This document shows, in pieces, positions 2,896 to 61,621 of a stretch of DNA of 64,000 bases. Origin of the DNA: a virus (lineage: Duplodnaviria > Caudoviricetes); IMG/VR virus record IMGVR_UViG_3300014204_000153, positions 1 through 64,000 of that record; one strand, written 5' to 3'. The stretch's first letter is position 1. Each line of letters begins with the position of its first letter. The notes beneath the pieces were generated by a model that was not told the origin of the DNA, did not search any database, and saw nothing but the letters and a program-made list of their open reading frames with translations. Position numbers and translations under genes: made by a program.

Positions 2896-2916
2896 TTTTA
2901 AACTTTGGAGGATATC

Positions 2917-4634: not shown

Positions 4635-4785
4635 AATATCATCTAGCGTTCATATCCAGCTTAAATGTTATATTCTAAAATATAAGTTATTTGATTAATC
4701 TACGTATCATCTAATGCAATCTAGACTACCTTTAAATATTCATTTTAAAGTTATATCCTCGCATTATTATTTTTCCTCATATTTC

Positions 4786-4856
4786 TAGTTTCTCTCCGTT
4801 TTTCTAACCTATAAATAACAAAATAAACAGTAGGTCAGAAAAACGGAGAGAAACTA
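4786..4856 (+). promoter_or_regulatory. T4-type late promoter TATAAATA (4810-4817) inside an RBS-sequestering inverted repeat
   Basis: TAGTTTCTCTCCGTTTTTCT (4786-4805) is the perfect reverse complement of 4837-4856, which contains the GGAGAG RBS of the next gene. Confidence 0.8.
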
Positions 4857-4858
4857 TT

Positions 4859-42618: not shown

Positions 42619-42894
42619 ATGAGAGAAGAATTATTCGCTGAATTTGATGATAGACAAGGCGATGCAGCTACAGTAAAATTACAAACTTGGGAAAAGCTTG
42701 GAGTATTATCTAGATACTATCCATTTATGGTACGAAAATATCTGTTCAAAAATATACTTGGAAAAGTTTACGTTATACCACCTGGAATTATAAGTGCTGA
42801 AAATGTTAGAAGATTTGAAACAGAAAAGTTTTATAAATTAACTTCAGATCAAATATTCGCCCTAGCTGAGGCGCATGCAAGGAGAAAGAGTTGA
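42619..42894 (+). pseudogene. C-terminal half of split gp2-like gene
   Basis: MREELFAEF...W..L....YYPFMVRKYL...I...VYVIP aligns to the second half of the 42021 protein. Confidence 0.75.
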
Positions 42895-45800
42895 GAAAGT
42901 CTAGCAGAAAGCCTGGCGGTCCTTACAGGACGAGAAAACCAACAAGAGCAGAAAAAACTATGTCTGCCGCTTCTGGTGCTTCCGCTAGAGAATTCTCCGA
43001 AATGGACTTTGCTACACCAAATGTGAAGAAACATTCTTTAAGAGATCCTTTCAGTGGAAGATATACAACTGCTGCTACTCTATCAGAAACTATGAGAGAT
43101 GCAAGATCTTATGCTGCAGCTTCTATGGTAAAGATTAGAGAAACGATGAGCAAGCTTCAACTTTCTATATTAAAAGCAACATCTGAGACTAATCGTGCAG
43201 CTAAAGATGCTGCTGAAAAAGCTTTAAAGAAGTTTGAAAAAGCAGATGAAAATTTTACAGAAGTATCTAAAGCACTTTATTCTGGAGCAGAAAAAGCTGG
43301 ATCAAATGTAATAAAGAGTGTTCAACTTCTTAGATCTGAAATAGAATCTCTTTCAAATAATGTAGCAGAATTATCAAAAAATGGAATATCTTTAGACGAA
43401 TCAGATGTAAGTAATATGATATTAGCTGTAAAAGAAAAAACCCCTGGTTCTAAAGTTGATGTAGCAGATATATTAGTTCCAGTACAAGATAGACAAGAAT
43501 CAAACAGAGATAAATTAACTGACGTAATGGATTATGTTACTACTGTTCTTGAAAATGATATAGCTAATCATTTAAAGAAAAGAATAGAATCTGGATTTAT
43601 TAAAGATGTAGCTTTAAGAAAGACTTTAAGAGAACAAGTTCTCGGTGAAACTGAAAAACAAGATCGCCGGGGAAGAATGCATATATCGAAATTTGTTGAA
43701 GCTGGAGAAGATGCTTATCTTCCATCTGTATCACAAGCTGTATCTGAAATGAAGAAAGAAATAGCTAATGTTTTAAGTGGTGGAGATACGGCTAAAGCTG
43801 CTGAAAGGTTTACAGATTTAACTGAAGATGCTTTTAAAAGATTAGATAAGATCTTTTCAGAAGAATCAGGATATCTTGCTAAAAATCCTGGTGTAGAAAA
43901 AAGAGATATTGGTATAGCATCAATAGCATCAAGTGTAAGAGATTTAAAAGAGCAGTTTTATGTAAATCAAGATGAATCAACAACCGGAACATCTTCAAGT
44001 ATATCTGAAGAAATAGCAGAAGCAGTTCTTGGAAAAAATAGAAAACTTAGAATAACTCCAGAAGCTGAAGAAGCTTTAGCAAATGCATACAGTGGTAGAA
44101 TGAGTAAAGTTTCAGATTATATAATGTCTGCTGCTAATCTAAGTAAGAAAGAATTTGAAGCAGTTGATAATGCTAAGAAATTAACATCAGAAGCTCCAAG
44201 TGGAGATTATGCTCAAGTTTTGTCCGAAATATTCTCAGAGATGGTTCAAGCAAGAGTAGATAATCCAGATGCAGCTTCAGCTTATGAAGAAGTACATAAA
44301 TTATCTGAAAGTTTATATGCTGTTTATGATTTAATGAAAGATTCAAATGATGCTACAGATGAAGAACTTGAATTTTTTAAAGATAAACTTGGACCTTCTA
44401 TAGATAATTTACTTGATGAAACAGAAAAAGCTAAGAAATCAGAAGATAGTTCAAGAAGAAGATCAAAAGTTATTGAAACTATAGCTTCAGCTAGTGGAAT
44501 TCCTATACTTGAGGATATAGTTGAGTTCTTCTCATCTAGAAAAGATAAACAAAGTAAAGAAAGAGCTGAACAATTAGAACAAAAGAAATCTGCTGCTGAA
44601 AAGATAATGGAAGCATACCAGACTAAAGTTATTTCTAAAAAAGATAAAAATAAGTCAGATTATTTTTCTAAGTATGAAGAATCTATGCCAGAAAAAGCTG
44701 ATGCTGGTGAAATTCTTCAATCAGATGAAGAGTCTAAAAAAGAACAAAAAAGAACTAATTCAATTTTAGAAGATATACGTGAAATCTTTAAGAGAAATGA
44801 ATCTGCTCCTGATAATGAAGAAAATAAAAAGAGCGGAATAATTGATTCAACTCTTGGATATATGGCTGGAGCTAAAGGTCTTAGTATGGTTAGTAAAGTT
44901 GGAGCTGTTATTGCTATGTCTTTAATTCCAATCATTGCTGGTGCATTAGCATATTCTATTACAAAAAAGGTAATTGGAAATAAAGAAGAAAATGAAAGAG
45001 AAAAGAAAGAAAAGTTCTTAGCTTTGAAAGAACAATCTCCTGAGTTATTTGCTGAAGCTGAGAAAAGATATCAATCTGATTTAGCAACTGCTGAAGCTGA
45101 TGCAAAGAAATTCTCACCAGTCTCAAGAGAAGCAGGAGAAGCAAATAAGAAAGTAGCTGCTCTTAGAAGAGATAGAGAATCACAAATAGTTTCAAGAGCT
45201 GAGAAAATAGCTGGAGAAATGGGAATTGAAGCTCCAACTGCTTCAGATGTAATAATCAGAAGAGATTCAGATACTAGTCCAAATATGGGTCTTAAGATAG
45301 GTGATCCTAAAAGAAAGCCTGAGATAATAGTTAAAGATGGTGTAAACTTTGAAGGTCTTCATCCAAATATAAAGCAAGGATTATTTGAAGCTGCTAAAGA
45401 GATGGCTCAAAATGGTAAAGTTTTAAGAATTACATCAGGACTAAGATCTCGTGCTGAGCAAACTGAATTATTTGAAGCTTATAAAAGTGGAAAAAGTAAA
45501 TATCCAGCTGCATCTCCTGGGAGTTCTCCTCATGAGTCAGGACTTGCTTTTGATATAGATAAAGGAAATATACCAGCTTTTACTCAGACCGCTGCTTTTA
45601 AAAATTACTTCGATCAGCCTTTACCAGGTAATGATCCAATTCATTTTGTTTTTAAGGGAGCTAAATTAAATACTGAAACTGAAGCAGTTGCTCAGACTCC
45701 AGAGAAACCAGAAGTTCCTATTTCTTCAGTATATAATAAGACTGAAGTTGCTGCTCAGACTCCAGAGAACCAAAATACTTCAATTCCACCAGTATATAAA

Positions 45801-46103
45801 CCAGAAACAAGTGAAGCAAAAATAGACACCCCACCAGTTGTAACAGATGGAATATCTTTTGAAGATAGAATGAGTCAGATAGAATCTGAGAATGTAAGTT
45901 TATCAGCAATAAAAGAAAGCGAATCTGCTAAAGAAGCAGCTTCAGCTGCGGCAACAATAATTCCAGTACCAGTTCCATCAGGTCAATCTCAGTCTTCTCA
46001 TAGCAGACAATCTGGACAATCCAGCCAACAAGTATCATCTGGACTTGAGAATGATTTGACAGTTCAACATATAGTGTTGTTCACTCTAGATAGGGTAATA
46101 TAA
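42891..46103 (+). CDS. tape-measure/baseplate-hub (gp29-like) protein with M15 peptidoglycan peptidase domain
   Basis: Long helical charged region, hydrophobic GxxxG stretch, LRITSGLRS..EQ..L...ASPGSSPHESGLAFDI (VanY/M15 SxH...D). Confidence 0.75.
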   Translation: MRKSSRKPGGPYRTRKPTRAEKTMSAASGASAREFSEMDFATPNVKKHSLRDPFSGRYTTAATLSETMRDARSYAAASMVKIRETMSKLQLSILKATSETNRAAKDAAEKALKKFEKADENFTEVSKALYSGAEKAGSNVIKSVQLLRSEIESLSNNVAELSKNGISLDESDVSNMILAVKEKTPGSKVDVADILVPVQDRQESNRDKLTDVMDYVTTVLENDIANHLKKRIESGFIKDVALRKTLREQVLGETEKQDRRGRMHISKFVEAGEDAYLPSVSQAVSEMKKEIANVLSGGDTAKAAERFTDLTEDAFKRLDKIFSEESGYLAKNPGVEKRDIGIASIASSVRDLKEQFYVNQDESTTGTSSSISEEIAEAVLGKNRKLRITPEAEEALANAYSGRMSKVSDYIMSAANLSKKEFEAVDNAKKLTSEAPSGDYAQVLSEIFSEMVQARVDNPDAASAYEEVHKLSESLYAVYDLMKDSNDATDEELEFFKDKLGPSIDNLLDETEKAKKSEDSSRRRSKVIETIASASGIPILEDIVEFFSSRKDKQSKERAEQLEQKKSAAEKIMEAYQTKVISKKDKNKSDYFSKYEESMPEKADAGEILQSDEESKKEQKRTNSILEDIREIFKRNESAPDNEENKKSGIIDSTLGYMAGAKGLSMVSKVGAVIAMSLIPIIAGALAYSITKKVIGNKEENEREKKEKFLALKEQSPELFAEAEKRYQSDLATAEADAKKFSPVSREAGEANKKVAALRRDRESQIVSRAEKIAGEMGIEAPTASDVIIRRDSDTSPNMGLKIGDPKRKPEIIVKDGVNFEGLHPNIKQGLFEAAKEMAQNGKVLRITSGLRSRAEQTELFEAYKSGKSKYPAASPGSSPHESGLAFDIDKGNIPAFTQTAAFKNYFDQPLPGNDPIHFVFKGAKLNTETEAVAQTPEKPEVPISSVYNKTEVAAQTPENQNTSIPPVYKPETSEAKIDTPPVVTDGISFEDRMSQIESENVSLSAIKESESAKEAASAAATIIPVPVPSGQSQSSHSRQSGQSSQQVSSGLENDLTVQHIVLFTLDRVI

Positions 46104-46944: not shown

Positions 46945-48849
46945 ATGGCTATAAATTTTCCTAATTGGTTTAATACATTTAAAAGAAAAAGTCCAGCTAT
47001 AGGACCTGAGAACGTTTACAATCCAGTTGTGACTACAAGAGATTATTCTGATGTAGGTGTTGATAGTTCATTCCAAAAAGGTGATATGCTAGCCGCTACT
47101 GGACTATCATATCCCACCGTAGTTGGTTCGAATTCTGTTACAAGCATGGGTGGATTTTTTGGAGGTTACTTCTCCTTTAGTGGATGGCAAGGTTCATTTC
47201 CACTTCATGTTATGCACAGCTTGGTAAGACTTTATTTATGGATGGGTCAAGATCCAGATATAAGATATGCTATAGATGAAATAGTTAATGAAGCAGTTTC
47301 GACAGCATATAATAATGATATAGTTAAGATAGATTTAGATAGTGTAGAAATGCCAAAGTCAATTAAAGAAAGAATATCAGACGAATTTGGTGGTATTCTT
47401 GATATGATGGAATTCAAGAGGAAATCCTACTATCACTTCAGTGATTTCTATACAAACGGCAGAATATTTTATAAATTAGATGTTAGTAAGAAAAATGCTA
47501 AAGCTGGAATTAAAGGGATAAAAAACTTATCACCATTTGATGTTATAGCATATTTCGATGGTCAGAATAATGTATTCAGAGATCCAGAATCTGTAAAGAT
47601 AGATTTTAAAAGAGGATATGTTCTTACAGAAAATGCCTTTAGAAATGCTTATTATCTTGGTATGACTAATCCAGCTGTAGCAGCTGGTACTCCAAGGATG
47701 AGTAATTATTATGTTGCCGTTCCTGAAGAATTGGTAGTTTATCAGCACACTGGATTATCTGACTGGCGTTCAAATGTTCCAATATCATATCTTCATCTTG
47801 TACTAAGGACTCTTAATCAACTTAGAAACCTTAGAGATGCTATGATAATTTATAGAATGACTAGAGCTCCTGAAAGATTTGTGTTTAATGTTGAAGTTGG
47901 AAAAATGCAAGCGGCTAGAGCTCAGCAATATGTAGCAGAAGTAGCATCGAAACTTAAGCAGACTATAAGTTATGTTCCAGAAACCGGTCAGTTTAAAGAC
48001 ATGGAAGAAAAGCTTCAGATATACAAAGATTGGTATTTCCCTAAGGTAGACGGCAAAGGTACAGATGTAGACGTTCTTCAGAGCGGTAACATGCAGGGTC
48101 AGTTAGAGGAAGTCCAAGCTATTCGGAAGGACCTGTTCATGCAACTGTTCATCCCTCCGAACAGATATATTGATGATCATTCAATGATGAACTTCGGTTC
48201 CATGGGAGACATGGAGAAGTCAGAAGTAAAATTCTTCAAGTTCATATCTAGACTTCAACTACAGTATAGTTCGGTATTTTATGATATGTTAAGAATGCAA
48301 CTTAGTATGAAAAATATTATGACTGCTAAAGAATTTGATAAGATAAAAGGTTCTATAAAGTTCTCTTGGGGTTCAGAGAACGTATACAGCGAGGCTAGAA
48401 ACTTTGCTGTTATGCAAAGGAAAGCAAGTGTTCTTGGTCAGTTTGAAAATTACATTGGATCATATGGCATATCTGAAGATTGGATTACGAAGAATGTTAT
48501 GGGATTCACTGATGAGGAAATAAAAGATAATGAAAGTACAGTTTTAGATTCAATGAAGAAAAAGAACTACCGCGACAGAATTAAGAATGGCCAGATATTG
48601 TTCGATGAGAATGGTAAAGAAATAAAAGATCCGTATGGAACAGGTGGTGGTGGAATGGATGCTAGTGGTGGTGGAGAAGCGCCCGCAGATGGTGAAGAAG
48701 TTCCACCTGAAGAAGGTGGTGGAGAACAACCAGAAGGTGAAGCTGGAAATGCAGAAACGTCTGGAGAAGATAAAGAGAAGACTGAAAGCGTATTAATAGT
48801 TAAATCTAGATTTAAGGATCTTCTGTTAGAGAGGTTAAAAGATAAATGA
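46945..48849 (+). CDS. gp20: portal vertex protein
   Basis: AIDEIVNEA, FY.NGR.FY, SYLH...R.LNQLR.L.DA..IYR.TRAPER..FNVEVG.M...RA.QY, GT.V..L.G, SEVKFFKFI.RL. Confidence 0.95.
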   Translation: MAINFPNWFNTFKRKSPAIGPENVYNPVVTTRDYSDVGVDSSFQKGDMLAATGLSYPTVVGSNSVTSMGGFFGGYFSFSGWQGSFPLHVMHSLVRLYLWMGQDPDIRYAIDEIVNEAVSTAYNNDIVKIDLDSVEMPKSIKERISDEFGGILDMMEFKRKSYYHFSDFYTNGRIFYKLDVSKKNAKAGIKGIKNLSPFDVIAYFDGQNNVFRDPESVKIDFKRGYVLTENAFRNAYYLGMTNPAVAAGTPRMSNYYVAVPEELVVYQHTGLSDWRSNVPISYLHLVLRTLNQLRNLRDAMIIYRMTRAPERFVFNVEVGKMQAARAQQYVAEVASKLKQTISYVPETGQFKDMEEKLQIYKDWYFPKVDGKGTDVDVLQSGNMQGQLEEVQAIRKDLFMQLFIPPNRYIDDHSMMNFGSMGDMEKSEVKFFKFISRLQLQYSSVFYDMLRMQLSMKNIMTAKEFDKIKGSIKFSWGSENVYSEARNFAVMQRKASVLGQFENYIGSYGISEDWITKNVMGFTDEEIKDNESTVLDSMKKKNYRDRIKNGQILFDENGKEIKDPYGTGGGGMDASGGGEAPADGEEVPPEEGGGEQPEGEAGNAETSGEDKEKTESVLIVKSRFKDLLLERLKDK

Positions 48850-49742
48850 AATTTTATCAAATAACAGAATCTATTATATCAGATAAGAAAAATCTTTATG
48901 ATAAATCTCCATCTGATATAGCTAAATTCTTTGTAGAATCTAGTGGAAGAAAGTTAGATGTAGCTAAGTCTAGATTAACTTTCTGGAGAAATAGACTTAG
49001 AACAAGAGATAAAAATCCAGAAATAGAAAAGAAGTACAGAGATGCTTTAAATATTATAAATCGAATGGCTGGAAGAAGTTTAAGAAGTAAAGGACATACT
49101 GATAATGATTTAATAAGAAAAACAACAGATGATAGAAAATATCTTATGGCTATTTCAGAGCTTAAAAAAGAAGCAAAGAGATCTGGAAAATATGTATCAG
49201 ATAAAGAAGCAGGAAATATAATATCAGCAGTGTGTGAATTTACAAGAACTGACTATGCTGATATAAGAAAATATCAAATAGCTGATAATCCAGAAAATTA
49301 TAACGATACTTTTAAAAAATACTCAGAACAAATTGAAAAATATATTTCTTTAATGCCAAAGTATAAAGATGGAACTGTTTATAGAGGTATACAAGTAGGA
49401 AGTTTTGGTGAACCAAAAGATATAAAAAAATTTGCATTTTTGAAACCAGGTGATGAAATAGATATGCGTGGAACATCATCTTGGAGTAGTAAAGAAGATG
49501 AATCACATGTTAAGAGAAGAAATATTAAGTTTGTTTTAGAAAAGCCTTTAACTGGAGTATCTGTTAATTTAGTTTCTGAGTTTCCAGCTGAAGATGAAGT
49601 TACTTTTTCTAAAGATTCTAGATTTTATGTAAAAAAAGTTAAGCTCAAAAAAGATCCGGAGCTGTCTGGAGATTATGATGAAAATTCAGATAATTATTAT
49701 TCTTTTATGCATGTTTACATATATGTAGAGGAAAAGGAATAA
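48846..49742 (+). CDS. ADP-ribosyltransferase (R-S-E clade) with putative capsid-targeting N-terminus
   Basis: VYRG, TSSWSS, EDEV; N-terminal MKFYQITE and shared helical module. Confidence 0.8.
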   Translation: MKFYQITESIISDKKNLYDKSPSDIAKFFVESSGRKLDVAKSRLTFWRNRLRTRDKNPEIEKKYRDALNIINRMAGRSLRSKGHTDNDLIRKTTDDRKYLMAISELKKEAKRSGKYVSDKEAGNIISAVCEFTRTDYADIRKYQIADNPENYNDTFKKYSEQIEKYISLMPKYKDGTVYRGIQVGSFGEPKDIKKFAFLKPGDEIDMRGTSSWSSKEDESHVKRRNIKFVLEKPLTGVSVNLVSEFPAEDEVTFSKDSRFYVKKVKLKKDPELSGDYDENSDNYYSFMHVYIYVEEKE

Positions 49743-49748
49743 TTTAAT

Positions 49749-50678
49749 ATGAAATTTTATTTTATATCTGAATCTATAATATCAGACAAGAAAAAGCTAT
49801 TAGATAAAAATCCAATAGAAATAGCTAATTATTTCATATCTTCAAGTAATAATAATATCCAAGCTGCTTTAAATAGAGCAGTCTTTTGGAGTAATAGAAT
49901 AACTTCAGATAGAAAGAATAGTTTTCAAGATAAAGAAAAAGTAAGAAAAGTAGTAGATATAATAAAATCTATGATAGGAAAAGTAAGTATTACTGGTCAT
50001 CATAAAGATGTTTTTGATCAAAATAAAGAAATTCATTTTTTTAAAAATAATGATCAACATGATGAAAAAGATAGATTAAAACATGCAAGAAAATTAATCA
50101 TTTCTGATGCAAAGAAAAATGGTTATAAAATAAATGAAGATCATGCATATGATATGATAAAGTCTGTGTATGATTTTACTGATTCAGATTATGAAGTTAT
50201 GAGAAAAATTCAAAGTGATCCAAATTTTAAATATAATGAAGATGAAAAAGATAAATTAAAATTAAAAAGTAAATATATAGAACAATTTATAAAAATGTCT
50301 CAAAAATTTTCTGGAAATACAATATATAGAGGTTTAGAATTTGAATTATATAAAAGTTTAAAAGAAACATATGAAAAAAATATGAAAATAGTTAAAGGTT
50401 TTTCTGAATTAAAAGAAGGTGAAGAAGTAAATATGTTAGGTACTTCTTCTTGGACTAGTAATAAAAATGAACGTCATGTAAAAGAAAGTAATATTATTTT
50501 TATATGTAATAAACCAAAAAACGGAGTACCAGTTAATCATGTTTCTAGATATCCAAAAGAAGATGAAGTTATGTATTCAAAAGATGCAAGATTTATAGTT
50601 AAAAAAGTTGAAGTTAAAAAGAATAAAGAAGGTGATATAACAAAGATAAAAATCGAAGTTGAAGAAAATAACATTTAA
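49749..50678 (+). CDS. ADP-ribosyltransferase, tandem paralog
   Basis: IYRG, TSSWTS, EDEV; MKFYFISE N-terminus; very AT-rich. Confidence 0.8.
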   Translation: MKFYFISESIISDKKKLLDKNPIEIANYFISSSNNNIQAALNRAVFWSNRITSDRKNSFQDKEKVRKVVDIIKSMIGKVSITGHHKDVFDQNKEIHFFKNNDQHDEKDRLKHARKLIISDAKKNGYKINEDHAYDMIKSVYDFTDSDYEVMRKIQSDPNFKYNEDEKDKLKLKSKYIEQFIKMSQKFSGNTIYRGLEFELYKSLKETYEKNMKIVKGFSELKEGEEVNMLGTSSWTSNKNERHVKESNIIFICNKPKNGVPVNHVSRYPKEDEVMYSKDARFIVKKVEVKKNKEGDITKIKIEVEENNI

Positions 50679-50692
50679 TATATGAGGGTATT

Positions 50693-50974
50693 ATGAATTA
50701 CTCTGAAAGAGAAAAGTCAAGAGCTAAATCTGATAGAAATATAAAAGTTACTTCTCCAGACGGTAAAGTTATCATAGATACTTCATCATTATCGAATAAA
50801 AAGACTAAGTTTAGCGATATACTAAATTTAAAATTGAAAATAGAACGCAATCCTAGTGATGGATCAAAAAAGTATTGGATAACTGGACCAAAAATATTTT
50901 TTGAATTTCCAGATGGTACTACTGAAGATGAAGCAAGAGAAAAGTTGAAAGAAATGAAGAAAGGGAAGAAATGA
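50693..50974 (+). CDS. hypothetical basic protein
   Basis: GAGG RBS; ATGA coupling to next gene. Confidence 0.6.
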   Translation: MNYSEREKSRAKSDRNIKVTSPDGKVIIDTSSLSNKKTKFSDILNLKLKIERNPSDGSKKYWITGPKIFFEFPDGTTEDEAREKLKEMKKGKK

Positions 50975-51357
50975 AATTTAGAGATATCATAGAAGATGAA
51001 GGTGGAGAAGCTTCTCCAGCTGTTAGTACTATTACTACTGATGATATAGCTCAGTTTGGAGATAGAATTGGAGCAAAGAAGAAAAAGAAGCCTCCCATCG
51101 CTAAGAAACCTCTTGTCAACTGGAGAAAGAACCATGTAGAAGTAGAATCGCTAGTCGCGGAAAGAGATTACAGCGAATTCGACGATCTAAAGTCTGCTTA
51201 TCCAGCTAAAGATTCTTACTCTATTTTTACTGAAACAGATCCAGCGACGAAAGTAAAAAGATACATCATAGAGAAAAACAACAAAATAGTCTTTGGTCCG
51301 ACCACTGACGAGAAAGCTGCTAGGTCTAAGCTAAACGATCTTAGAACAAAAAAATAG
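50971..51357 (+). CDS. putative internal head protein
   Basis: MKFRDIIEDEGGEA start; K-rich patch. Confidence 0.6.
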   Translation: MKFRDIIEDEGGEASPAVSTITTDDIAQFGDRIGAKKKKKPPIAKKPLVNWRKNHVEVESLVAERDYSEFDDLKSAYPAKDSYSIFTETDPATKVKRYIIEKNNKIVFGPTTDEKAARSKLNDLRTKK

Positions 51358-51403
51358 GATATAATGGAGTAACTAAACATTATTACTTAAAGGAATTATT
51401 AAA

Positions 51404-51676
51404 ATGAAATTTAAAAATATTCTTTTAGAAACATCTAAAATTAATGATTCAGAGAAGATTATAACTAAAGAAAGACTTAATAGTGGAAATTCTAATGGAT
51501 TAGTTAGAGAACTGATAAATAAGGCTGAGAACGACGGCTCAAAAAATCCATATGCTTCTGCTCTTAGAGCTATTAATGATTATGTCTTGAGAAATAAAGA
51601 AAAACTTTCTCCAGAAGAAATGAATGTTCTAATTAGAGCTAGAAGATCATTGAGAGCAACAATAGGAAATTATTGA
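51404..51676 (+). CDS. putative internal head protein, DUF3175-like helical domain
   Basis: MKFKNILLE start; PYASALRAINDYVLR...L.RAR..LR resembles the DUF3175 consensus as recalled. Confidence 0.5.
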   Translation: MKFKNILLETSKINDSEKIITKERLNSGNSNGLVRELINKAENDGSKNPYASALRAINDYVLRNKEKLSPEEMNVLIRARRSLRATIGNY

Positions 51677-51713
51677 TTCTAAGGATAAGTATAAAGAAAA
51701 GAAAAGAGAAGCA

Positions 51714-51738
51714 ATGAGAAAACCTCCACTGAACCAAA
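51714..51738 (+). repeat. 25-bp duplicate of the gp4 gene start (second copy 51981-52005)
   Basis: ATGAGAAAACCTCCACTGAACCAAA exact at both sites. Confidence 0.9.
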
Positions 51739-51768
51739 ATTATAAAAATATAAAATAGGAGATCTAAT

Positions 51769-51984
51769 ATGAAGTTCGTACAGATGATGGAAGATGATAA
51801 TAGCAGATTCAAAGAACTTACTGACAAAATAGCAGAGCTTAAAGGAGAAATGAATAGTAATCGTGGATCTGGGGCTGGGGCTGGAGAGCAACATAACCTA
51901 ATTAAAAGTGATTACATCTATTATAAGAATGAATTAAAAAACCTTAAAGAAAAAATGAAATTGAAAGCAAAGACTACTAAATGA
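51769..51984 (+). CDS. putative internal head protein (coiled coil)
   Basis: AGGAG RBS; MKFVQMMED start; sits between the 25-bp duplicates. Confidence 0.6.
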   Translation: MKFVQMMEDDNSRFKELTDKIAELKGEMNSNRGSGAGAGEQHNLIKSDYIYYKNELKNLKEKMKLKAKTTK

Positions 51985-52439
51985 GAAAACCTCCACTGAA
52001 CCAAAGAGGTAGAAGAAATGTAAAAAGAGGTGTATATATACTCATACACCCAGAGAAATACATTGGAGATTGTAACAATGTAATTTATCGTTCAGGATTA
52101 GAACTTGCATGTTTTAAATTTCTTGATGCTAATTCAAATGTTAAAAGATGGGGAAGCGAAATTGTTCAGATTCCATATTTAGATGCAAGTACTGGAAAGA
52201 AAAGAACTTACTTTGTCGATTTATATTTTGAATCAATAACTTTAAATGGTTCAACAGATAAAGTCTTGGTAGAAGTAAAACCGTCTAATCAGACAATTCC
52301 ACCAAGATCAGATATGAAGAATTACAGAGCAGCTGCAGCTGAGTATGCTAAGAACATCAGCAAGTGGACAAGAGCTAGAGAATGGGCTTCTCAGAACGGT
52401 GCAAGATTTGAGATTATAACCGAGAAGGAAATACATTAA
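51981..52439 (+). CDS. gp4: head completion nuclease gp4-like
   Basis: P.KY.GD...VIYRSGLE..CF.FLD.N..V..WGSE...IPY......R.YFVD......LVEVKP..Q. Confidence 0.9.
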   Translation: MRKPPLNQRGRRNVKRGVYILIHPEKYIGDCNNVIYRSGLELACFKFLDANSNVKRWGSEIVQIPYLDASTGKKRTYFVDLYFESITLNGSTDKVLVEVKPSNQTIPPRSDMKNYRAAAAEYAKNISKWTRAREWASQNGARFEIITEKEIH

Positions 52440-52948
52440 TGAAATTCTCAGCAATCCTTGAAGAATCTATGTCTTTAGAATCTTATAGAAAATTCTCTAA
52501 AAAATTCTTTGATAAACTTCCAGAAGATATTAGAATATCTATAAGTCATTATTCTGGAATGGGTTCTAGAGCTGTTAATATGTTTCTTACTTCTGGAAAT
52601 GCTGGTAGTGGATGGCCAAAAGATTTATTAAAAAAGATAATAAAAGACATAGAATCAATTTCTCAAAATAATGCACTTAAGAATAGTATAGTTGTTTTTA
52701 AAGGAGTAAAATACAAACCGAAGGTTGGAGAAAGTTTAAAGACTCCTGGTTTTATCAGTACATCTGTAAGTAAAGAGATAGCTGAATCTTTTGCTGGATC
52801 AGATGGAACAGTTATAATGATAAATCTTCCAATTGGTACAAAAGCATTCCCAATTCCAAATTCAGAATTCGAAATGCTTCTATCAAAGCAATATCAAATA
52901 AAAATAATTAAATATGATAAAAATATAGCAATTGGAGAATTAAAGTGA
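52439..52948 (+). CDS. VIP2-like ADP-ribosyltransferase
   Basis: Y.G.....VN..L, VFKG (R replaced by K), GFISTS, EFE; MKFSAILEE start. Confidence 0.75.
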   Translation: MKFSAILEESMSLESYRKFSKKFFDKLPEDIRISISHYSGMGSRAVNMFLTSGNAGSGWPKDLLKKIIKDIESISQNNALKNSIVVFKGVKYKPKVGESLKTPGFISTSVSKEIAESFAGSDGTVIMINLPIGTKAFPIPNSEFEMLLSKQYQIKIIKYDKNIAIGELK

Positions 52949-53619
52949 AATTCTCAACAGTACTTAAATCTAATGAAAAGCCTCTTTATTCTGAGACACC
53001 AGATAAAATAGTTAATCATTTTTTAAAATCTTCTAAAAATGATAAAGATATTGCTTTAAAAAAATTCATATTTTGGTCTAATGGTCTTAAAAAGAAACTT
53101 AACTATCAAAATAATAAAATATATGTATATAATGTAGAGACTGCTAAAAAGATATTATCTAAAAAAGATGAAGAGCATGAAAATTCTAAAATAGATTCTA
53201 TGATAAATAATTTTAATTTTTCTGAACGAACTAAAAATAGTGTAAAATTAGCATTGGAAACTGGATTTAATTCTTTCTCAAAAACAAAGCTTAGTGATGA
53301 AGAACAGTCATTTATAGATTCGCATGTTTCTGGAGATCCTAAAACAGAAAAAATAAAACCAAAATTACTTAATAATGTTAAACATCCAGTTTCTGTATAT
53401 AGAGCATATAATGATTCTGATATAAAAAAAGATACATTCATTTCTTTTACTTTAAGAAAAGACTGGGCAGAAAATACAGCAAATGATAATGATCTTAAAG
53501 TAATGAAGTTAAATCTTATAGTCGGAGATAAAGTTTTATTTGTTCCATTCTATAATAACAAACATATAGTAGAAGTAGAAGTACTTATTCCAAGTAACTT
53601 AGTTAAAGAAAGAAATTAA
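52945..53619 (+). CDS. ADP-ribosyltransferase-like domain on shared helical N-module
   Basis: VYRA, FISFT...WA, EVEVLI. Confidence 0.65.
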   Translation: MKFSTVLKSNEKPLYSETPDKIVNHFLKSSKNDKDIALKKFIFWSNGLKKKLNYQNNKIYVYNVETAKKILSKKDEEHENSKIDSMINNFNFSERTKNSVKLALETGFNSFSKTKLSDEEQSFIDSHVSGDPKTEKIKPKLLNNVKHPVSVYRAYNDSDIKKDTFISFTLRKDWAENTANDNDLKVMKLNLIVGDKVLFVPFYNNKHIVEVEVLIPSNLVKERN

Positions 53620-53645
53620 TAAAATATAGCAATTGGGGAATTAAA

Positions 53646-54344
53646 ATGAATAAATTCTCAGCAGTACTTAAATCTAATGAAAAGCTCCTTTATTCTGAGA
53701 CACCGGATAAAATAGCTAATCATTTTCTAAAATCTTCCGAAAATGATAAAACTGCTGCTTTAAAGAAATTTATATTTTGGTCTAATGGTCTTAAAAAATT
53801 AAACATTACAAAATATGATTTTAATATAGAAACAGCAAAAAAAATATTATCATCTAATAATAATGATAAACCGTGGAATGAAATACAAAAATATAATGGG
53901 ATGGATGTAGATAAAGAAATGAATCAAAATATAATGGATAGACTTAATTCTAAAACTCATATAATTAGTGTTTGTAGTGGACATCCTAAAGATTCTAAAT
54001 TAGCAATTGATGCAGGTGCATCAGAATATCCTCATTTTATATTTAGTGTTTATAATCCAAGGGATTTTGAAAAAACAGTAGAATATATTAAATCTAAATT
54101 AAAATCAAAAGATACAAAAATTAATGCTCATGCATGGGGAGGACCATATGGAAATTGGGTTGTTTGGAATGATAAAGAAGGTTGGAGAAATCATAAATTT
54201 CCAGAAGATCCTCAAAAATATAAAATAGACCATATTTCAATTACTGTTGAATCAACTATAGCACATAATGGAAAAAATCAAAAAATGTTAAATAATTGGT
54301 GGGAATTAATTACAAATAAACTAGAAGAATTGGATAACATATGA
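53646..54344 (+). CDS. shared helical N-module fused to unrelated C-domain (SxCSGH motif)
   Basis: First about 170 nt near-identical to 52945 gene; C-terminal D.E....I...LN.....ISVCSGHP. Confidence 0.65.
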   Translation: MNKFSAVLKSNEKLLYSETPDKIANHFLKSSENDKTAALKKFIFWSNGLKKLNITKYDFNIETAKKILSSNNNDKPWNEIQKYNGMDVDKEMNQNIMDRLNSKTHIISVCSGHPKDSKLAIDAGASEYPHFIFSVYNPRDFEKTVEYIKSKLKSKDTKINAHAWGGPYGNWVVWNDKEGWRNHKFPEDPQKYKIDHISITVESTIAHNGKNQKMLNNWWELITNKLEELDNI

Positions 54345-54766
54345 CATCAAAATTTTCAGCAATATTAGAAGATTTCGAAGCCAATGAAGATGGAGCTAAA
54401 AAGAAACTTGAGGCTCTTGAAAGATTATTGGTAAGAGTTGGAGCTAAACCAGGTGCTCAAAGAGTTCAGGCTCTAAATAATGAAAAGACAGAATTTAAGA
54501 CTCTGCTTTTCTTTAGAATGAATAATTCTAAAGGTGAACCTGTTGAACTAATGGCTGGTCATATAGATGGACAAAATAGAGCAAATAATTATTCTGTTCA
54601 TAGAAAAGATGGAACAACAAGAGCAGACAAGAACACATATATCGATGTCGTAAGAGATTCTCCAAAAGATGTTAAAGAAAAACTTCAAGAATTAGTTAAT
54701 AAGATGGCAAATATAAATGCTGGATTCAGAGAGAAACTTAATTCTCGTGGATGGAATAAAGAGTGA
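54341..54766 (+). CDS. putative internal head protein
   Basis: MTSKFSAILED start. Confidence 0.6.
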   Translation: MTSKFSAILEDFEANEDGAKKKLEALERLLVRVGAKPGAQRVQALNNEKTEFKTLLFFRMNNSKGEPVELMAGHIDGQNRANNYSVHRKDGTTRADKNTYIDVVRDSPKDVKEKLQELVNKMANINAGFREKLNSRGWNKE

Positions 54767-55002
54767 AATTTAAAGATACGATAAAAGGAATTAGAGATAT
54801 ACCACTTAAAAATGGTGGTTCTAGACTTGTACCAAGAAAAAATGGTAAATTTTCTGTAGCTAATGCTGGATGTAAAATATGCAATAGTTGCGGACAAATA
54901 ATATGCAAAGATACAAAGAATGTTGGTTCAGAACAATTTCCTTTCTTAAAAGAAACTTGGCCAGATAAATGTCCGTCTTGTGGAAATAAGGAATTTAAAT
55001 GA
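54763..55002 (+). CDS. zinc-ribbon protein
   Basis: CNSC ... CPSC; MKF start. Confidence 0.6.
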   Translation: MKFKDTIKGIRDIPLKNGGSRLVPRKNGKFSVANAGCKICNSCGQIICKDTKNVGSEQFPFLKETWPDKCPSCGNKEFK

Positions 55003-56195
55003 TATTATCACAAAAACCAGAGAATCCATTTCAGATATCTAAAATTGAAGTAGATGGTTTAGATTTATCTAAACATTTCGCTTCTTTAGTTATAGAAGAG
55101 TCTATTTTAAGATCTTTTCCTTATGGAACTCTTACTTTATCTAGAGAATTCTTAGATTATATGTCAGACTGGGATGAAGTAGAAATTGGATTCGTTGGTA
55201 AAATTGTAAGTATTTCTTGGACTACAGATCTTGATAATGGTAAAAATAAAAGGAATGCTGACTTTTTAGTTTATGGATGTAATAAAGATACTAAAGATAC
55301 CATATCTCTTCTTTTATGTTCTAAAGAAGCTCCAGAATTTTATACCAAACAGTTTTGTGATTACTGGGAAGATACAGAAACCAGCAACATTATTTCAGAT
55401 ATTCTTAAGAAACATTCAGGAATAAAGAAATCAAATGTAACTCCAGCTACATCAAAGGTTACATATTCAAATCCACTCCAGTGGACTCCAGCAGCTGCAT
55501 GTAAATATATCGTTCCAATGATGGATGGAAGTGATGGTTGTGCATATTTCTTATTTTCTTCTATTGGTGAATCTGGAATAGAAACAAAATGTATGCCATT
55601 CAATAAAATGACTAAGGATGATTCTGATGAAAAAATAACTTTACTTTCTAAAATACCAGATGATAAAAGAGAAGTTAAAACTAATCTAAGTACTGCATTA
55701 TATTTTGACTTTAATCCAGCATCTAATAATATACTTCAGCAACTATCTGATAATGAATTTGGATTATCTGTAATAGAATATGATGTAAAGACAGCTACAC
55801 AAAAGAATTCTAATATAAATATGTTAGAGAAGAATGTATCAAAGATTGGTTCTAAAAGTGGATTAACTGAATTATATGATTCCTCTTTTAGAAGTTCTTT
55901 TAGGTTTTCTGGATTAAATGCTCAAACTTCAGAGAAGAGTAAATCAGTTCATTATTTTGTTTCAAATAGTAATATTAGACTTACTCTTCCTGGTGTTAGT
56001 TCTAGAAAAATTGGAGTTACTATAGATGTAGATCTTTACTCTGAAAAGAATCTTATAACGGATCCAAGAAGTGAGAGATCTGGAAAGTCGGTTGTAACTA
56101 TTATTAAACATCATTTTACACCATTATCATATTTTCAAATTGTATCTTGCGTGAAAACTGGATTAAACAAATGGAGAAAGAGAGAATCAATATGA
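54999..56195 (+). CDS. baseplate hub protein, gp27-like
   Basis: I.ESI...PYG.L.L, ISDIL, Y.....YFLF, LPG......G..I......SG...V..IKH.F. Confidence 0.6.
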   Translation: MILSQKPENPFQISKIEVDGLDLSKHFASLVIEESILRSFPYGTLTLSREFLDYMSDWDEVEIGFVGKIVSISWTTDLDNGKNKRNADFLVYGCNKDTKDTISLLLCSKEAPEFYTKQFCDYWEDTETSNIISDILKKHSGIKKSNVTPATSKVTYSNPLQWTPAAACKYIVPMMDGSDGCAYFLFSSIGESGIETKCMPFNKMTKDDSDEKITLLSKIPDDKREVKTNLSTALYFDFNPASNNILQQLSDNEFGLSVIEYDVKTATQKNSNINMLEKNVSKIGSKSGLTELYDSSFRSSFRFSGLNAQTSEKSKSVHYFVSNSNIRLTLPGVSSRKIGVTIDVDLYSEKNLITDPRSERSGKSVVTIIKHHFTPLSYFQIVSCVKTGLNKWRKRESI

Positions 56196-56359
56196 GCAAT
56201 AAAGAAGACGGAAAAGAACTTCACAGAGCGGCTCTTAATTGCGCAGCTAAAAGAGATTATGCTGGTTTCAAGAAGAATATCAATGACATAATGGAGAATA
56301 AGTTTGACGCTAAAACTACATCAATTGCGCCGACTTTTTTCACTAAAATCGAGGAATAA
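56192..56359 (+). CDS. small prohead core protein (gp67/68-like, positional)
   Basis: Immediately before protease; DY..FK..I..IM..K. Confidence 0.5.
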   Translation: MSNKEDGKELHRAALNCAAKRDYAGFKKNINDIMENKFDAKTTSIAPTFFTKIEE

Positions 56360-57027
56360 TGACTGAAAGAGACACTGCTCTATTCGAGTCATTCGGTGAA
56401 ACGGTTGTAGAAGAAGTATGTAATGAAGGTGAAGAAAAGAATTATTATCTTTCTGGATTGTACACCGAATGCGACGTAAAAAATGGTAACGGAAGAACTT
56501 ATCCTACCTCTATTGTTGAGAGGGAAATAAATGGAAAGATACTTCCAAAGGTTAAAGCTGGTACAGCTTTTGGTGAATTCGGCCATCCTAAGACTTTAGC
56601 TGAAATGCCAAGCATAGATCCATCAAGAATTGCTCACCGTATAGTAGAAATACAGAAAGAAGGGAATAATATTTTCAGAGGTAAATCTGTACTTGTTCCT
56701 GAAGGTCTTGGTAAAGTAGCTATTGCAATGGTTAAAACTGGCGGTGTTTTATCTGTTTCATCTAGAGGTGTTGGTAGAGTTAATAAGCAGACTGGAGTTG
56801 TAGAGAGCAGCTACAATATGTTTACGTATGATGTAGTGCTAAATCCAGGAATGAAGAAAGCAAACCAAACAGCTGTCATGGAGAATCAAGAATTCTTCGT
56901 AAATCAGATTGGAGTGTTTACTGAGGAGGAGTGGTACAAAATTGAAAAAGATAGATCAAAAATGTTAGATGCTACATTCTTTAGAGCTGACCTTCTTAGT
57001 GGGTTAGCTGAAATAGCAAGGAGTTAG
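56359..57027 (+). CDS. gp21: prohead core protease
   Basis: KNGNGRTYP, AFGEFGHP, IAHRI, G.LSVSSRGVG, YDVVLNP. Confidence 0.92.
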   Translation: MTERDTALFESFGETVVEEVCNEGEEKNYYLSGLYTECDVKNGNGRTYPTSIVEREINGKILPKVKAGTAFGEFGHPKTLAEMPSIDPSRIAHRIVEIQKEGNNIFRGKSVLVPEGLGKVAIAMVKTGGVLSVSSRGVGRVNKQTGVVESSYNMFTYDVVLNPGMKKANQTAVMENQEFFVNQIGVFTEEEWYKIEKDRSKMLDATFFRADLLSGLAEIARS

Positions 57028-57105: not shown

Positions 57106-57915
57106 ATGTCTAATAAAATAAAGACACTGTTCGATGAACTCAGAAGTAAGTACCCTGAAGTTATCTCAGAAGAGTTCGCATCGAAAGTTGTCGCAGTTGT
57201 AGAAGAAATCGTAGAATCAGAGAAGCAGAAAGCTATTGATGAGATTAGAGAAACTGAATCTGAAAAGATTCGTGAAGAAATCTCAGAGGAAGTAAAGGAT
57301 CAGTCTGAAAGTGAGATCGAGAAATTAGTTAATACTCTTGATGTATTCTGTGAAAATGCTGTCAATGAATTTTGTGATAGCAAAGCAGAACTTCTAGAGG
57401 AAGCTACTAAATCTACGATTAGCTCAGTTCTTGCTGAGAAGATGAAAGAAGTCTTTGAGACTTATGGTATTGTTACCGAGGAATCAGCTGAAGTTAAAGC
57501 TGATCTTGAAAAGCAAGTTGAAGAACTCAACGAAACTATCGGTAACATGGCTGATACTATTTCTGAACTCAGCGAAGAAAAGAAAAAGTCAGATGCTATC
57601 TCAGTCGTCGATGAATTCTGCAGTGAAATGAATATGACTGACACTGTCAAGTTCTATAAGCTGATTGAAGATTATGATATCGATGATGTTGATAGTTTCA
57701 GGGAAAAAGTTGAGTCTCTCGCTTCTGTCTTTGAACAAGGTAAAGAATCTGATGAAGACGAAGACGAGGATGAGGACGAAGATCCTGAAGATGGTGGTGG
57801 TAGGAAAGTTGAAAAGAAAAATATTAAAGATTCAGATGAAAAAGAAGATAAGTGCGAGTCTGATGACGAAGACGCTTCCTTCATCTCGAGAGTTAGAAAG
57901 AATCTTAAAAAATAA
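57106..57915 (+). CDS. gp22: prohead core scaffold protein
   Basis: Acidic helical; between protease and capsid; L..YL/FC.....EF...E..I. Confidence 0.8.
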   Translation: MSNKIKTLFDELRSKYPEVISEEFASKVVAVVEEIVESEKQKAIDEIRETESEKIREEISEEVKDQSESEIEKLVNTLDVFCENAVNEFCDSKAELLEEATKSTISSVLAEKMKEVFETYGIVTEESAEVKADLEKQVEELNETIGNMADTISELSEEKKKSDAISVVDEFCSEMNMTDTVKFYKLIEDYDIDDVDSFREKVESLASVFEQGKESDEDEDEDEDEDPEDGGGRKVEKKNIKDSDEKEDKCESDDEDASFISRVRKNLKK

Positions 57916-57976: not shown

Positions 57977-59494
57977 ATGGCAGATAAAAGGAAAGACATC
58001 GTTAAGGCTTATATCAAAGCGGTAGAAGCCGAAGACAACACCGCTTTTGCTAATTCAAGAGTTAAGCATATAACTGAAGTTGTTCTTGAAAACCAGATAG
58101 ATCATTACATCGAGACTTCTGGTAAGACTTTTGATTATATCGCTAATCAGATCCTTGGTGAAGACGGCACCCTGAATGAGACCGCGGCTGGTTCCTCATT
58201 CGCGGATGCTGACGTTGCTAAGTTCGCCGAGATCTATCTTCCGATCGCAGCTAAGGTTATTCCTTCACTAGTTATTAACAACATGGTTGGTGTTCAGCCT
58301 ATGACGCAGCCCAACGGGTTCGTGTATGCTATGCGCGCGTTCCATGCTAAATCTCCGTATGCTGAATCAACTGATATGCGTGGCATGCGGTACACCAATA
58401 CACAGATTCTAAACTTTGCGACGGCAACCTCCCTCGCGGTTGGATCTGGTAATTGTTGGTTCATCGCTTCAAGCGGTGCTAAAGGTTACTGCGTTCACAA
58501 AGAAGGTACCCTCGCTCTAGTTAAGATCTCAGATGAAGATACTCCGTTCGCTGCTGGTGACACTGCTACTATTGGCAGTTCATCTTCGGTTACTTATTCT
58601 ACTGCTGATCTTACTGTGCTTTCAATCTATAATAACGAAATTGCTCAGGCTGCCGGTCTGTTCAAGTACTTCTCAGGTTATACCAACAGTGGTTCAGCTG
58701 AAGGTTCCGCCGCGTTTAGTACTGATCAGGGTCAGTATCCTCAGAATGTTAGTGAAGTGCAGATCAGAGTTGAGAGAGAAGCTGTTGAAGCTAAGACCCG
58801 CCAGCTGTATGCTGAGTATCCGATCGAAGCCGAACAGGATCTTCGCGCGATTCACAAACGTGACCTAAGAGCTGAACTCTCTGAGATCACTGCTGGCGAA
58901 ATCGTTAATGAAATCAACTCCGAGTTCATCGCCAATATCAAGACTGCTGCTCAGATCGGTGGGTCAACGACCTTCGATATGGAATCAGCTGACGGACGTT
59001 GGGAAATTGAAAAATTCCGTTCACTGTGGGTCAGAGTTACACGTGGAGCTAATCAAATCGCTCAGGCAACTCGCTTAGGACCTGGTAACTTCATCGTTGC
59101 TAGCCCTGATGTTTGCACTGCTCTTAGTCAGCTCGACGGCTTTGCTGCTGCTCCTCCTAAGGGTGCTTTCGGTGGCATGAGTCCTATCGGTGGTGACTGG
59201 TATGTTGGTAAGATCGGTGGAACGATGGATGTTTACCGTGATATGTTCGCTACTACGGATTATATCTCTGTCGGTCGTAAGGGTTCCAATGAGTGGGATG
59301 CGGGCTTATTCTTCCTTCCGTACATTCCGCTACAGTTCATCGCAGGACAAACACCAGATAATTTACAGCCAAAACTCAAGTTCCTAACCAGGTATGGCAA
59401 GGTTGCTAACGTCTTGCGCGCCTCTTCCAGCCAGGTTGCGGATAGCCGCTATTACCGGTATATTGCAGTTCAGAATCTGTTCGCGAGTTACTGA
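57977..59494 (+). CDS. gp23: major capsid protein
   Basis: VGVQPMTQP.G.VYAMR, VEAKTRQL.AEY.IE.EQDLRAIH, EI..EIN.E, GLFF.PYIPL, TRYG. Confidence 0.95.
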   Translation: MADKRKDIVKAYIKAVEAEDNTAFANSRVKHITEVVLENQIDHYIETSGKTFDYIANQILGEDGTLNETAAGSSFADADVAKFAEIYLPIAAKVIPSLVINNMVGVQPMTQPNGFVYAMRAFHAKSPYAESTDMRGMRYTNTQILNFATATSLAVGSGNCWFIASSGAKGYCVHKEGTLALVKISDEDTPFAAGDTATIGSSSSVTYSTADLTVLSIYNNEIAQAAGLFKYFSGYTNSGSAEGSAAFSTDQGQYPQNVSEVQIRVEREAVEAKTRQLYAEYPIEAEQDLRAIHKRDLRAELSEITAGEIVNEINSEFIANIKTAAQIGGSTTFDMESADGRWEIEKFRSLWVRVTRGANQIAQATRLGPGNFIVASPDVCTALSQLDGFAAAPPKGAFGGMSPIGGDWYVGKIGGTMDVYRDMFATTDYISVGRKGSNEWDAGLFFLPYIPLQFIAGQTPDNLQPKLKFLTRYGKVANVLRASSSQVADSRYYRYIAVQNLFASY

Positions 59495-60912: not shown

Positions 60913-61314
60913 TTAGTTTTTTCTAAAATGTTCGATAGCAGAAAGAGATTTCTTCATCTGATTTTCATGGCCTTCAACTGGTTTTCTTCCAGCCGTTGTT
61001 CTAAAACCCCAACTATCTTTCTTTGATATAGTTGGATTTAACTGATATCTTGCGGTGCCTCCTGGTCTGTTTTTTGAAGGCTGATGCGAATTAAAACCGC
61101 CAGGTCGTTCTTTTTTATACCTAATTTCTCTACGATATGTTCCATCTGAATGATACAAATAAACTACATCACGATCATCATTGCTAGCTTTTGTATCAAG
61201 ATATGCTTTAATACCTTTGCTCTTTTGTTTATCTGTAGTAATTTCTTTCAGACCAATAGTCGAAAAATGGCCGTGTATATCTTTAGCCTCTTCTAATACA
61301 GTTTTAAATTTCAA
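60913..61314 (-). CDS. putative internal head protein (basic)
   Basis: AAGGAG RBS; MKFKTVLEEA start. Confidence 0.65.
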   Translation of the reverse strand: MKFKTVLEEAKDIHGHFSTIGLKEITTDKQKSKGIKAYLDTKASNDDRDVVYLYHSDGTYRREIRYKKERPGGFNSHQPSKNRPGGTARYQLNPTISKKDSWGFRTTAGRKPVEGHENQMKKSLSAIEHFRKN

Positions 61315-61621
61315 AACTCTTTCTCCTTAGAATTGAAGGATCTTTTTCTGGGTTTCTTATTTCTTCTTCTAATGATTTAATTGCTGCTCCAATTGATGAT
61401 TTAAACCATCCAGAAATCTTTTCTTTTCCAGATTTATTTTCACTGTTTGGAACCATAACATATGCTCTTATATCTCCATATCTTCTTTCATCAAATTTTA
61501 CTTTGTAATCTATTCCTTTATAATTTACTTTATGATTTGGAAGAACATCTCTAAGGCCACCCGGTCTCATTGTTTCATATTGAGAAAAATCACGTTCTTC
61601 TAACATATCTCCAAATTTCAT
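61304..61621 (-). CDS. putative internal head protein
   Basis: AGGGG RBS; MKFGDMLEE start; AATAAATA upstream on minus strand at about 61662-61673. Confidence 0.65.
   Translation of the reverse strand: MKFGDMLEERDFSQYETMRPGGLRDVLPNHKVNYKGIDYKVKFDERRYGDIRAYVMVPNSENKSGKEKISGWFKSSIGAAIKSLEEEIRNPEKDPSILRRKSFEI

Follow-up and report, generated by a model that had tools for sequence, protein, structure and literature searches.

The internal proteins of bacteriophage T4 are the classic injected anti-restriction factors, with Ip1, Ip2 and Ip3 each blocking a different GmrSD enzyme, and their short N-terminal capsid targeting sequence (CTS) has become an established means of filling capsids with foreign proteins. 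IPI, IPII and IPIII and their CTS were reportedly treated in work by Mullaney and Black from 1996 and by Repoila et al. from 1994. T4 also packages and injects an ADP-ribosyltransferase (ART), Alt. In this study we analyzed the first 64 kb (64,000 nucleotides, hereafter the window) of the 85,247-bp single-contig virus record IMGVR_UViG_3300014204_000153 (G000), in which a series of genes, most of them inside a T4-type head module, begin with a variant of the leader MKF-x-x-hydrophobic-hydrophobic-(x)-Glu (hereafter the tag). By analogy with T4 we consider it probable that this tag is the lineage's own version of the CTS and that the proteins bearing it would be packaged in the head, trimmed and injected.

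In the T4 genome (NC_000866) both ipII and ipIII start with MKTYQEFIAE, the leader that the first-pass annotation of this DNA had given for the internal proteins; ipI starts with MKTFKEF and is cut further on, at ITE, and Alt starts with MELITE. Ten N-terminal residues of IPIII are enough to have a protein packaged, a foreign one included, and within the T4 CTS residues 4 and 7 act in targeting and residues 8 and 10 in processing (PMC9026906). Asp at position 10 stops cleavage but not targeting, and the T-even internal proteins have nothing in common but their leader (PMC9026906, PMC3012670, PMC12373910, PMC5694885). Two other systems resemble the one described here in that N-terminal signals send proteins into the procapsid. 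In phage P1 the packaging signal of DarB takes up ~30 residues and there is no consensus among the Dar proteins; in phiKZ and SPN3US the ejection proteins carry propeptides of >100 residues with an (S/A/G)-x-E site for a gp21-related protease (PMC9024508, PMC5694885). The giant phages share with the present case the removal of the signal after a Glu by a protease of this type, which is predicted here.

A recurrent leader in and around the head module

Fifteen clear members and one probable member (66118) were found in the 85-kb genome, three of the 15 at 74.5-75.3 kb, and the tagged repertoire amounts to ~12% of the genes and ~8% of the genome. The first-pass annotation had described a set of 12 on the basis of their N-termini; all 12 are real and lie where they were placed, and the set proved larger, at 15-16. 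The members, together with one uncertain open reading frame (ORF), are listed below with their lengths in amino acids (aa) and isoelectric points (pI); a slash follows the candidate cleavage Glu.

48846..49742, plus strand: MKFYQITE/S, 298 aa, pI 9.2; tag, ~50-aa N-terminal module (N-module) and ART domain (PF03496, 31 bits)
49749..50678, plus strand: MKFYFISE/S, 309 aa, pI 9.2; tag, N-module and ART domain (PF03496, 21.8 bits)
50693..50974, plus strand: 93-aa ORF of uncertain status, no N-terminal tag, internal tag-like KFSDIL
50971..51357, plus strand: MKFRDIIE/D, 128 aa, pI 9.2; sole member with an ortholog in the close relative L001
51404..51676, plus strand: MKFKNILLE/T, 90 aa, pI 9.8
51769..51984, plus strand: MKFVQMME/D, 71 aa, pI 9.4
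52439..52948, plus strand: MKFSAILE/E, 169 aa, pI 9.5; short ART (PF03496, 46 bits)
52945..53619, plus strand: MKFSTVLK (no Glu), 224 aa, pI 9.4; tag, N-module and C-terminal body with ART-like motifs
53646..54344, plus strand: MNKFSAVLK (no Glu), 232 aa, pI 9.0; front end as in 52945, unrelated C-terminal body
54341..54766, plus strand: MTSKFSAILE/D, 141 aa, pI 9.5
54763..55002, plus strand: MKFKDTIK (no Glu), 79 aa, pI 9.5; two CxxC pairs, zinc-ribbon-like, with weak zinc-ribbon matches
60913..61314, minus strand: MKFKTVLE/E, 133 aa, pI 9.9; outlying
61304..61621, minus strand: MKFGDMLE/E, 105 aa, pI 9.1; outlying
66118, outside the window: MKKFSEIE, probable member
74505, outside the window: MKFKDINE
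74780, outside the window: MKFRDMLLTE
74978, outside the window: MKFSKLNE

Three members (52945, 54763 and 60913) begin with GTG or TTG, each time at the first start after a stop. The GTG starts of 52945 and 54763 overlap the preceding stop codon, and the TTG start of 60913, which is preceded by an AGGAG box, overlaps the last codons of the gene before it. Directly downstream of 60913 there is a terminator-like hairpin with a 13-bp stem (60888-60855), which stands between the tagged pair and the next genes.

The first-pass annotation proposed a scan of the whole proteome for the motif as a check on its capsid-targeting reading, and held that MKF starts equally common among early non-virion genes would speak against that reading. 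We searched for a core pattern, defined as [KR][FY], two residues, one to three hydrophobic or small residues and Glu, in the 26,767 residues of the proteome. It occurs 12 times at residues 2-4, where 0.21 occurrences are expected, and 15 times elsewhere (P~9e-18); with the strict KF-type pattern 12/15 proteome occurrences fall at residues 2-4. MK starts are found in 33 of the 123 called genes, and 13 of the 33 are MKF (binomial P=3e-9 for a Phe frequency of 0.051). The motif is not spread over the other genes: 10 of the members fill the interval between the portal and protease genes.

Within the tag Phe3 is present in 15/15 members, and the position three residues after it is I, L, M, V or T in most of them; the exceptions are 49749, which has Phe there, and 74505 and 74978, in which the hydrophobic residue is shifted by one position. 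The leader ends in I/L/M/V-x-E at residues 6-10 in 12/15 members, so that the candidate cleavage Glu expected by the first-pass annotation is present in these and not in 52945, 53646 and 54763, where it is replaced by Lys. Comparison of the 45 nt upstream of the tagged genes revealed no common sequence apart from a 52945/53646 duplication described below, and on this ground a shared promoter, ribosome-binding site or DNA cassette was rejected as the origin of the likeness. Because there is no such shared DNA and because the codons for Lys, Phe and Glu differ among the members, the constraint acts on the peptide.

The tagged proteins are also set apart by their charge. All 15 members and 66118 have a pI of 9.0-9.9, over lengths of 59-309 aa, in a proteome with a median pI of 5.9; 16/17 candidates are basic, compared with 28/106 other proteins with a pI >8 (Fisher P=1e-7). 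Three further ORFs were considered and left out: 39555 (MRKFFESLEE) has an acidic pI (4.5), and an ortholog in the relative G001 is conserved over its full length; neither 2905-4068 (internal MKFKIPL) nor 22078 (MKIDMKFLC, hydrophobic) fits the motif.

The main tagged cluster lies amid late structural genes, is co-oriented and tightly packed, and has overlapping stop and start codons. The T4-type head module, which spans 46.9-59.5 kb in this ~31% GC genome, contains the following untagged genes.

46945..48849, plus strand: gp20-type portal (PF07230, 345 bits; phrog_213), left edge of the tagged-gene cluster
51981..52439, plus strand: gp4-type head-closure protein (phrog_218, E=4e-41; PF08722), inside the cluster
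54999..56195, plus strand: 398-aa protein between cluster and protease, no match in Pfam or PHROG, homologs at the same position in L001 and G001
56359..57027, plus strand: gp21-type prohead serine protease, presumed processing enzyme (PF03420, Peptidase_S77, 64 bits against a cut-off of 27)
57106..57915, plus strand: gp22-type scaffold (PF25623, 68 bits)
57977..59494, plus strand: gp23-type major capsid protein (PF07068, 288 bits, match from residue 80)

The protease motifs GEFGHPK and VSSRGVG align with the His and Ser motifs of T4 gp21, with the catalytic His and Ser kept, and the protease itself starts with MTERDTALFE/S. In the alignment of gp23 a candidate maturation site, L65-N66-E67, falls opposite the T4 site LTE at 63-65, in agreement with the LNE site noted in the first-pass annotation, and L001 has MNE there. 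Since this capsid protein is at most ~32% identical to any phage capsid protein in the reference collection, the virus belongs to a deep, unstudied T4-like branch with an unusually small genome. The 54999-56195 product is a head-module protein of this lineage, whose place just before the protease is kept in both relatives.

Set against the T4 internal proteins, the locus shows the same design: small, basic proteins, for the most part not related to one another, have an N-terminal leader of 8-10 residues in which hydrophobics at +3/+4 and Glu at +5 or +6 come after an aromatic residue, and the hydrophobic-x-Glu ending of 12/15 members would fit the gp21 cleavage rule. Residue by residue, Y4, F7, I8 and E10 of T4 match F3, the hydrophobics 6 and 7 and E8 or E9 here, and the head machinery is the same (gp20, gp21 of family S77, gp22 and gp23). 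The differences are that the consensus is one residue shorter (MKF... instead of MKTY...), that there are 15-16 genes in an 85-kb genome compared with three in a 169-kb genome, that most of them lie inside the head-gene cluster and not in separate ip loci, and that three members lack the Glu and four carry an additional shared N-module of ~50 aa. The lineage-specific address tag proposed in the first-pass annotation is specific in its MKF form, and is otherwise better described as a T4 CTS derivative shorter by one residue.

Relatives and the prohead core

Scans of IMG/VR and metagenomes for relatives returned one close contig plus a 4-kb fragment only. The tags found in the nearest genomes and contigs are as follows, with identities to the window genome.

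L001, portal 60% and capsid protein 77% identical: small genes between portal and capsid gene start MKFNKILK, MKLKDIYNLIE, MKFKEISINE and MKFSEIINE
L009, capsid protein 77% identical: MKFSEILNE
G001, complete at 160 kb, capsid protein 54% and portal 47% identical: 12 N-terminal matches, 0.38 expected (P~1e-14)

The tag consensus of G001 is M[KR][YF]xEIL(N)E, the gene beside its portal starts with MTKYHQAINE, and its positional counterpart of 50971 starts with MIRFKELFKKKMIEEGEE. The G001 tagged genes are at 97134-98429 and 133622-139311, in separate clusters off the head module, an arrangement reminiscent of the T-even ip loci. When the tagged proteins of G000 were compared by BLAST with all called G001 proteins and the four tagged genes of L001, a single tagged-gene match was obtained, between 50971 and L001:9076 (52% identity over the first ~60 aa). 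As BLAST finds only this match, the tag persists while the predicted cargo turns over, and fast turnover of cargo between relatives is likewise a feature of the T-even internal proteins. The L001 homolog of 50971 (9076-9714) measures 212 aa and has a second tag-like segment, LKFSDLLE, inside it at ~residue 88. Compared with the 50693-50974 region of the window, it looks as if either two tagged genes were fused or one tag decayed.

Traces of the tag are also seen further away. In L007 and L008, whose capsid proteins are 25-32% identical, genes starting with MKLKDLLNE and MIKLKKLINE lie beside an S77 protease. Paraglaciecola GD virus 1 (L027) resembles the window genome in having small genes flank an S77-type protease in a deep-branching T4-like head module; these are gp8 (6244-6828, MKSYQEFLVE) and gp10 (7661-8002, MKSFDEYFE). 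It differs in keeping the T4-type consensus and in having only two such genes in its head module. Both are annotated as hypothetical proteins, and no published account of them was found. Since their starts are near-copies of the T4 CTS, they are likely to be unrecognised internal proteins. Not every T4-like lineage shows the tag: the cyanophage S-P4 head module was found to contain no CTS-like leaders. Given the tags in L007/L008 and in Paraglaciecola GD virus 1, we judge from these comparisons that the CTS is old and widespread, and that the MKF form is a lineage-specific derivative and no independent invention.

The conserved member 50971 brings up the most probable of the alternatives, namely that the tagged proteins are prohead-core or scaffold accessories, analogous to T4 gp67 and gp68, which would assist head assembly, be degraded by the protease and expelled, and deliver nothing to the host. 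The prohead-core genes 67 and 68 of T4 sit exactly between genes 20 and 21, and the tagged genes hold this very position, from portal to protease. Moreover T4 gp67, gp68, gp21 and gp22 also start with short leaders ending in hydrophobic-x-Glu, the scaffold of the window genome resembles the tag both at its N-terminus (MSNKIKTLFDE) and in an internal segment (KFYKLIE, residue 182), and 50971 is conserved in L001. However, structural core proteins are normally conserved, whereas the tagged sets of G000, L001 and G001 are nearly without homology. Three or four members are ART enzymes with no plausible scaffolding role, and the basic charge and small size fit the T4 internal proteins, while T4 gp67 has a long acidic tail. 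For the set as a whole we therefore regard this alternative as unlikely, and it probably holds for one or two members only. One of these is possibly 50971, a candidate gp67/68 analog, because no other member has an ortholog in the close relative L001. As for the internal segment of the scaffold, it reads KFYALIE in L001, and the strict KF-type pattern occurs internally at just three places in the proteome, this one included.

Bodies, a duplicated front end and ADP-ribosyltransferases

According to the first-pass annotation the bodies behind the tag are unrelated. This is true of most members, with the following exceptions. The proteins 48846 and 49749 are paralogs along their entire length, at 38% identity, 52945 and 53646 share 71% of their first 76 residues, and an N-terminal module of ~50 aa beyond the tag is common to these four. 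All other pairs are at shuffle background (z<4.1; 136 pairs, first 12 residues removed).

The 52945/53646 pair shows how the repertoire can grow. At the DNA level ~90% identity begins 25 nt before the start codon, continues for ~230 nt into the gene and then breaks off abruptly. The duplicated stretch covers the tag and the N-module (52920-53180 and 53621-53880, ~260 nt), and with it the last codons of the ART gene 52439 (...AIGELK) were copied and remain as a non-coding remnant ahead of 53646. The duplication is recent, and its product is a mosaic in which one front end is carried by two unrelated bodies; repertoire growth by the joining of a duplicated front end to new bodies is thus directly visible.

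These relationships bear on a further alternative, in which a single family of small basic proteins, possibly DNA-binding and with a non-capsid function, has diverged into all the members and the N-terminus is the last piece still conserved. Four members are indeed related through the N-module, a recent front-end duplication is visible and all members are basic. Yet the lengths range from 59 to 309 aa, the bodies include ART domains and a zinc ribbon, and ~130/136 pairs fall to shuffle background once the tag is removed. The duplication itself shows the opposite process, a shared front end on unrelated bodies, and the same tag is found on unrelated proteins in G001 and L001. Common descent of the whole set is therefore very improbable. 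Least probable of all, and hardly credible, is that the shared start merely reflects expression, through A/U-rich codons 2-3 (AAA UUU) and weak downstream mRNA structure that would favour translation initiation of late genes: the genome is AT-rich, MK starts are common in it and an AAA second codon is familiar in well-expressed bacterial genes, but this explains neither Phe3, the hydrophobic pair 6-7 and Glu 8-9, nor the varying codons, nor why the capsid protein (MADKRK) and portal (MAINFP) genes, the head genes with the highest expression, lack the pattern, nor its association with basic pI, nor the match to the experimentally defined T4 CTS.

To return to the tagged proteins as predicted CTS-bearing cargo, the most recognizable bodies are ARTs. 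Against the Pfam gathering threshold of 23.4 bits for PF03496, 52439 (46.4 bits) and 48846 score above and 49749 just below. By eye, from the translations, the putative ART motifs are YRG / TSSWS / EDE in 48846, YRG / TSSWT / EDE in 49749, FKG / STS / EFE in 52439, with Lys for the usual Arg, and YRA / SFT / EVE in 52945. The last of these has no Pfam match, even in a relaxed Pfam search on the bodies. Its structural neighbours in the atlas are PF03496 clusters (TM 0.59-0.65), which serves as a lead only. We therefore count three ARTs by Pfam and 52945 as a possible fourth. The short ART could not be aligned with the other two ART domains by MAFFT, the 48846 protein has no homolog elsewhere in a database of 5.8 billion proteins, and neither the 53646 protein nor its body has a family match in Pfam searches.

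T4 Alt is the obvious counterpart, being a head-associated protein with a PF03496 ART and a leader that ends in I-T-E (MELITE, compared with MKFYQITE here). It differs in size (682 aa, compared with 169-309 aa) and in being a single ART, where the window genome has three to four, which moreover use a tag of the internal-protein type.

Proposed route into the head, scaffold likeness and significance

The capsid-targeting reading put forward in the first-pass annotation received support from all the indirect tests, those of enrichment, genomic setting, protease family and catalytic motifs, basic charge, ARTs and relatives in which the tag is conserved and the cargo turns over. Packaging, cleavage and ejection we infer from T4. 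On this model the tagged proteins would be made together with the head proteins, and their leader would dock them into the gp22/gp21 scaffolding core, the base on which the gp23 shell assembles. The aromatic residue 3 and the hydrophobics 6 and 7 would lie on one face of a helix (i, i+3, i+4), followed by the cleavage Glu, and would correspond to Tyr4, Phe7 and Ile8 of T4, residues tied by experiment to targeting and processing. The gp21-type S77 protease would then cut after the Glu of the hydrophobic-x-Glu site, and the basic mature proteins so released would stay in the head with the DNA until their injection into the next host. Where Lys replaces the Glu, in three members, the protein could be packaged and left untrimmed, like the T4 Asp10 mutant. 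The predicted cargo would comprise three to four ARTs, Alt-like in role, and about ten small basic orphan proteins, which are candidate host-takeover or anti-defence factors. New members would arise by duplication of a front end and replacement of the body.

Several observations weigh against this model or qualify it. The phage is known as a contig only, from sequence alone. Besides the three members in which Lys replaces the cleavage Glu, some members, in particular 50971, may belong to the structural core and not to the cargo, and fifteen cargo species would be a lot of internal protein for the head of an 85-kb phage. None of the putative ARTs can be called a T4 Alt ortholog, since BLASTP of 48846, 49749, 52439, 52945 and 53646 against Alt gave E values of at least 0.38. 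The charge contrast is weak in G001 (P=0.007) because the proteome of that phage is basic overall.

Expression timing is a further point. The sequence TATAAATA, the T4 late-promoter consensus, precedes several structural genes at a distance of 20-55 nt and has one copy upstream of the 74.5-kb trio. A search for near-consensus late promoters upstream of the tagged genes was uninformative, because the background in this AT-rich DNA is 0.4 sites per 200 nt. The minus-strand block has two strong sigma-70-type promoter-like sites (62703-62675 and 60763-60735, TTGACA-17-TATATT, 11/12 matches), and the former is the strong promoter-like site nearest to 60913 and 61304. That this pair is on the minus strand is softened as an objection by T4 itself, whose ip genes are also on the strand opposite to the head genes.

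The likeness between tag and scaffold mentioned above recurs in each lineage compared, the N-terminus of the scaffold resembling the lineage's own tag.

T4: scaffold (gp22) N-terminus MLKEQLIAE; tag MKTYQEFIAE
This lineage: scaffold N-termini MSNKIKTLFDE, MKKIQILFEE and MDKIKILLEE; tag MKFxxILxE
L007: MAKSDLLKE, from a 363-aa protein with no Pfam match, taken as the scaffold only because its gene directly precedes that of the capsid protein; tag MKLKDLLNE

Because the tag resembles the first residues of gp22 lineage by lineage, this suggests that cargo may enter the core by imitating the docking-and-cleavage peptide of the scaffold. More tentatively, T4-type heads could all use the CTS as a general, predictable code in co-evolution with the N-terminus of the scaffold; we hold this to be possible, with the balance of these comparisons somewhat against it. 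If such a code exists, sequence would be enough to tell which proteins any uncultured T4-like phage injects.

In kind the system is a known one, that of the T4 CTS and internal proteins, and involves no new principle; what is new is the shortened consensus, the large repertoire and the multiple ART cargoes. The same address system, with a tight derived consensus, would be present in a lineage no closer to T4 than the cyanophages are, which indicates that the CTS is ancient, and the repertoire is five-fold larger than that of T4 in half the genome. If the model is correct, this dwarf T4-like phage devotes some 12% of its genes, four ARTs included, to injected effectors and would be an exceptionally good place to look for new proteins of host takeover and anti-defence. 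The tag also makes it simple to list, by sequence, the proteins of an uncultured T4-like phage that are candidates for injection; in this phage there are 15-16, mostly orphans with several ARTs among them.

Two further features were noted around the head modules. A 1070-aa protein encoded at 42891-46103, beside a gp48-like baseplate tube cap, has a VanY/M15 peptidase domain (PF02557) towards its C-terminal end and probably resembles a tape measure that carries a cell-wall hydrolase. In the relatives, paralogous ORFs of ~495 aa with a zinc-finger-rich N-terminus (L001 12699-14183 and 17162-18655; L017, from G001, 3804-5294) are inserted between the protease and scaffold genes and after the capsid gene, places where the window genome has none, and they look like mobile genes of the homing-endonuclease type.

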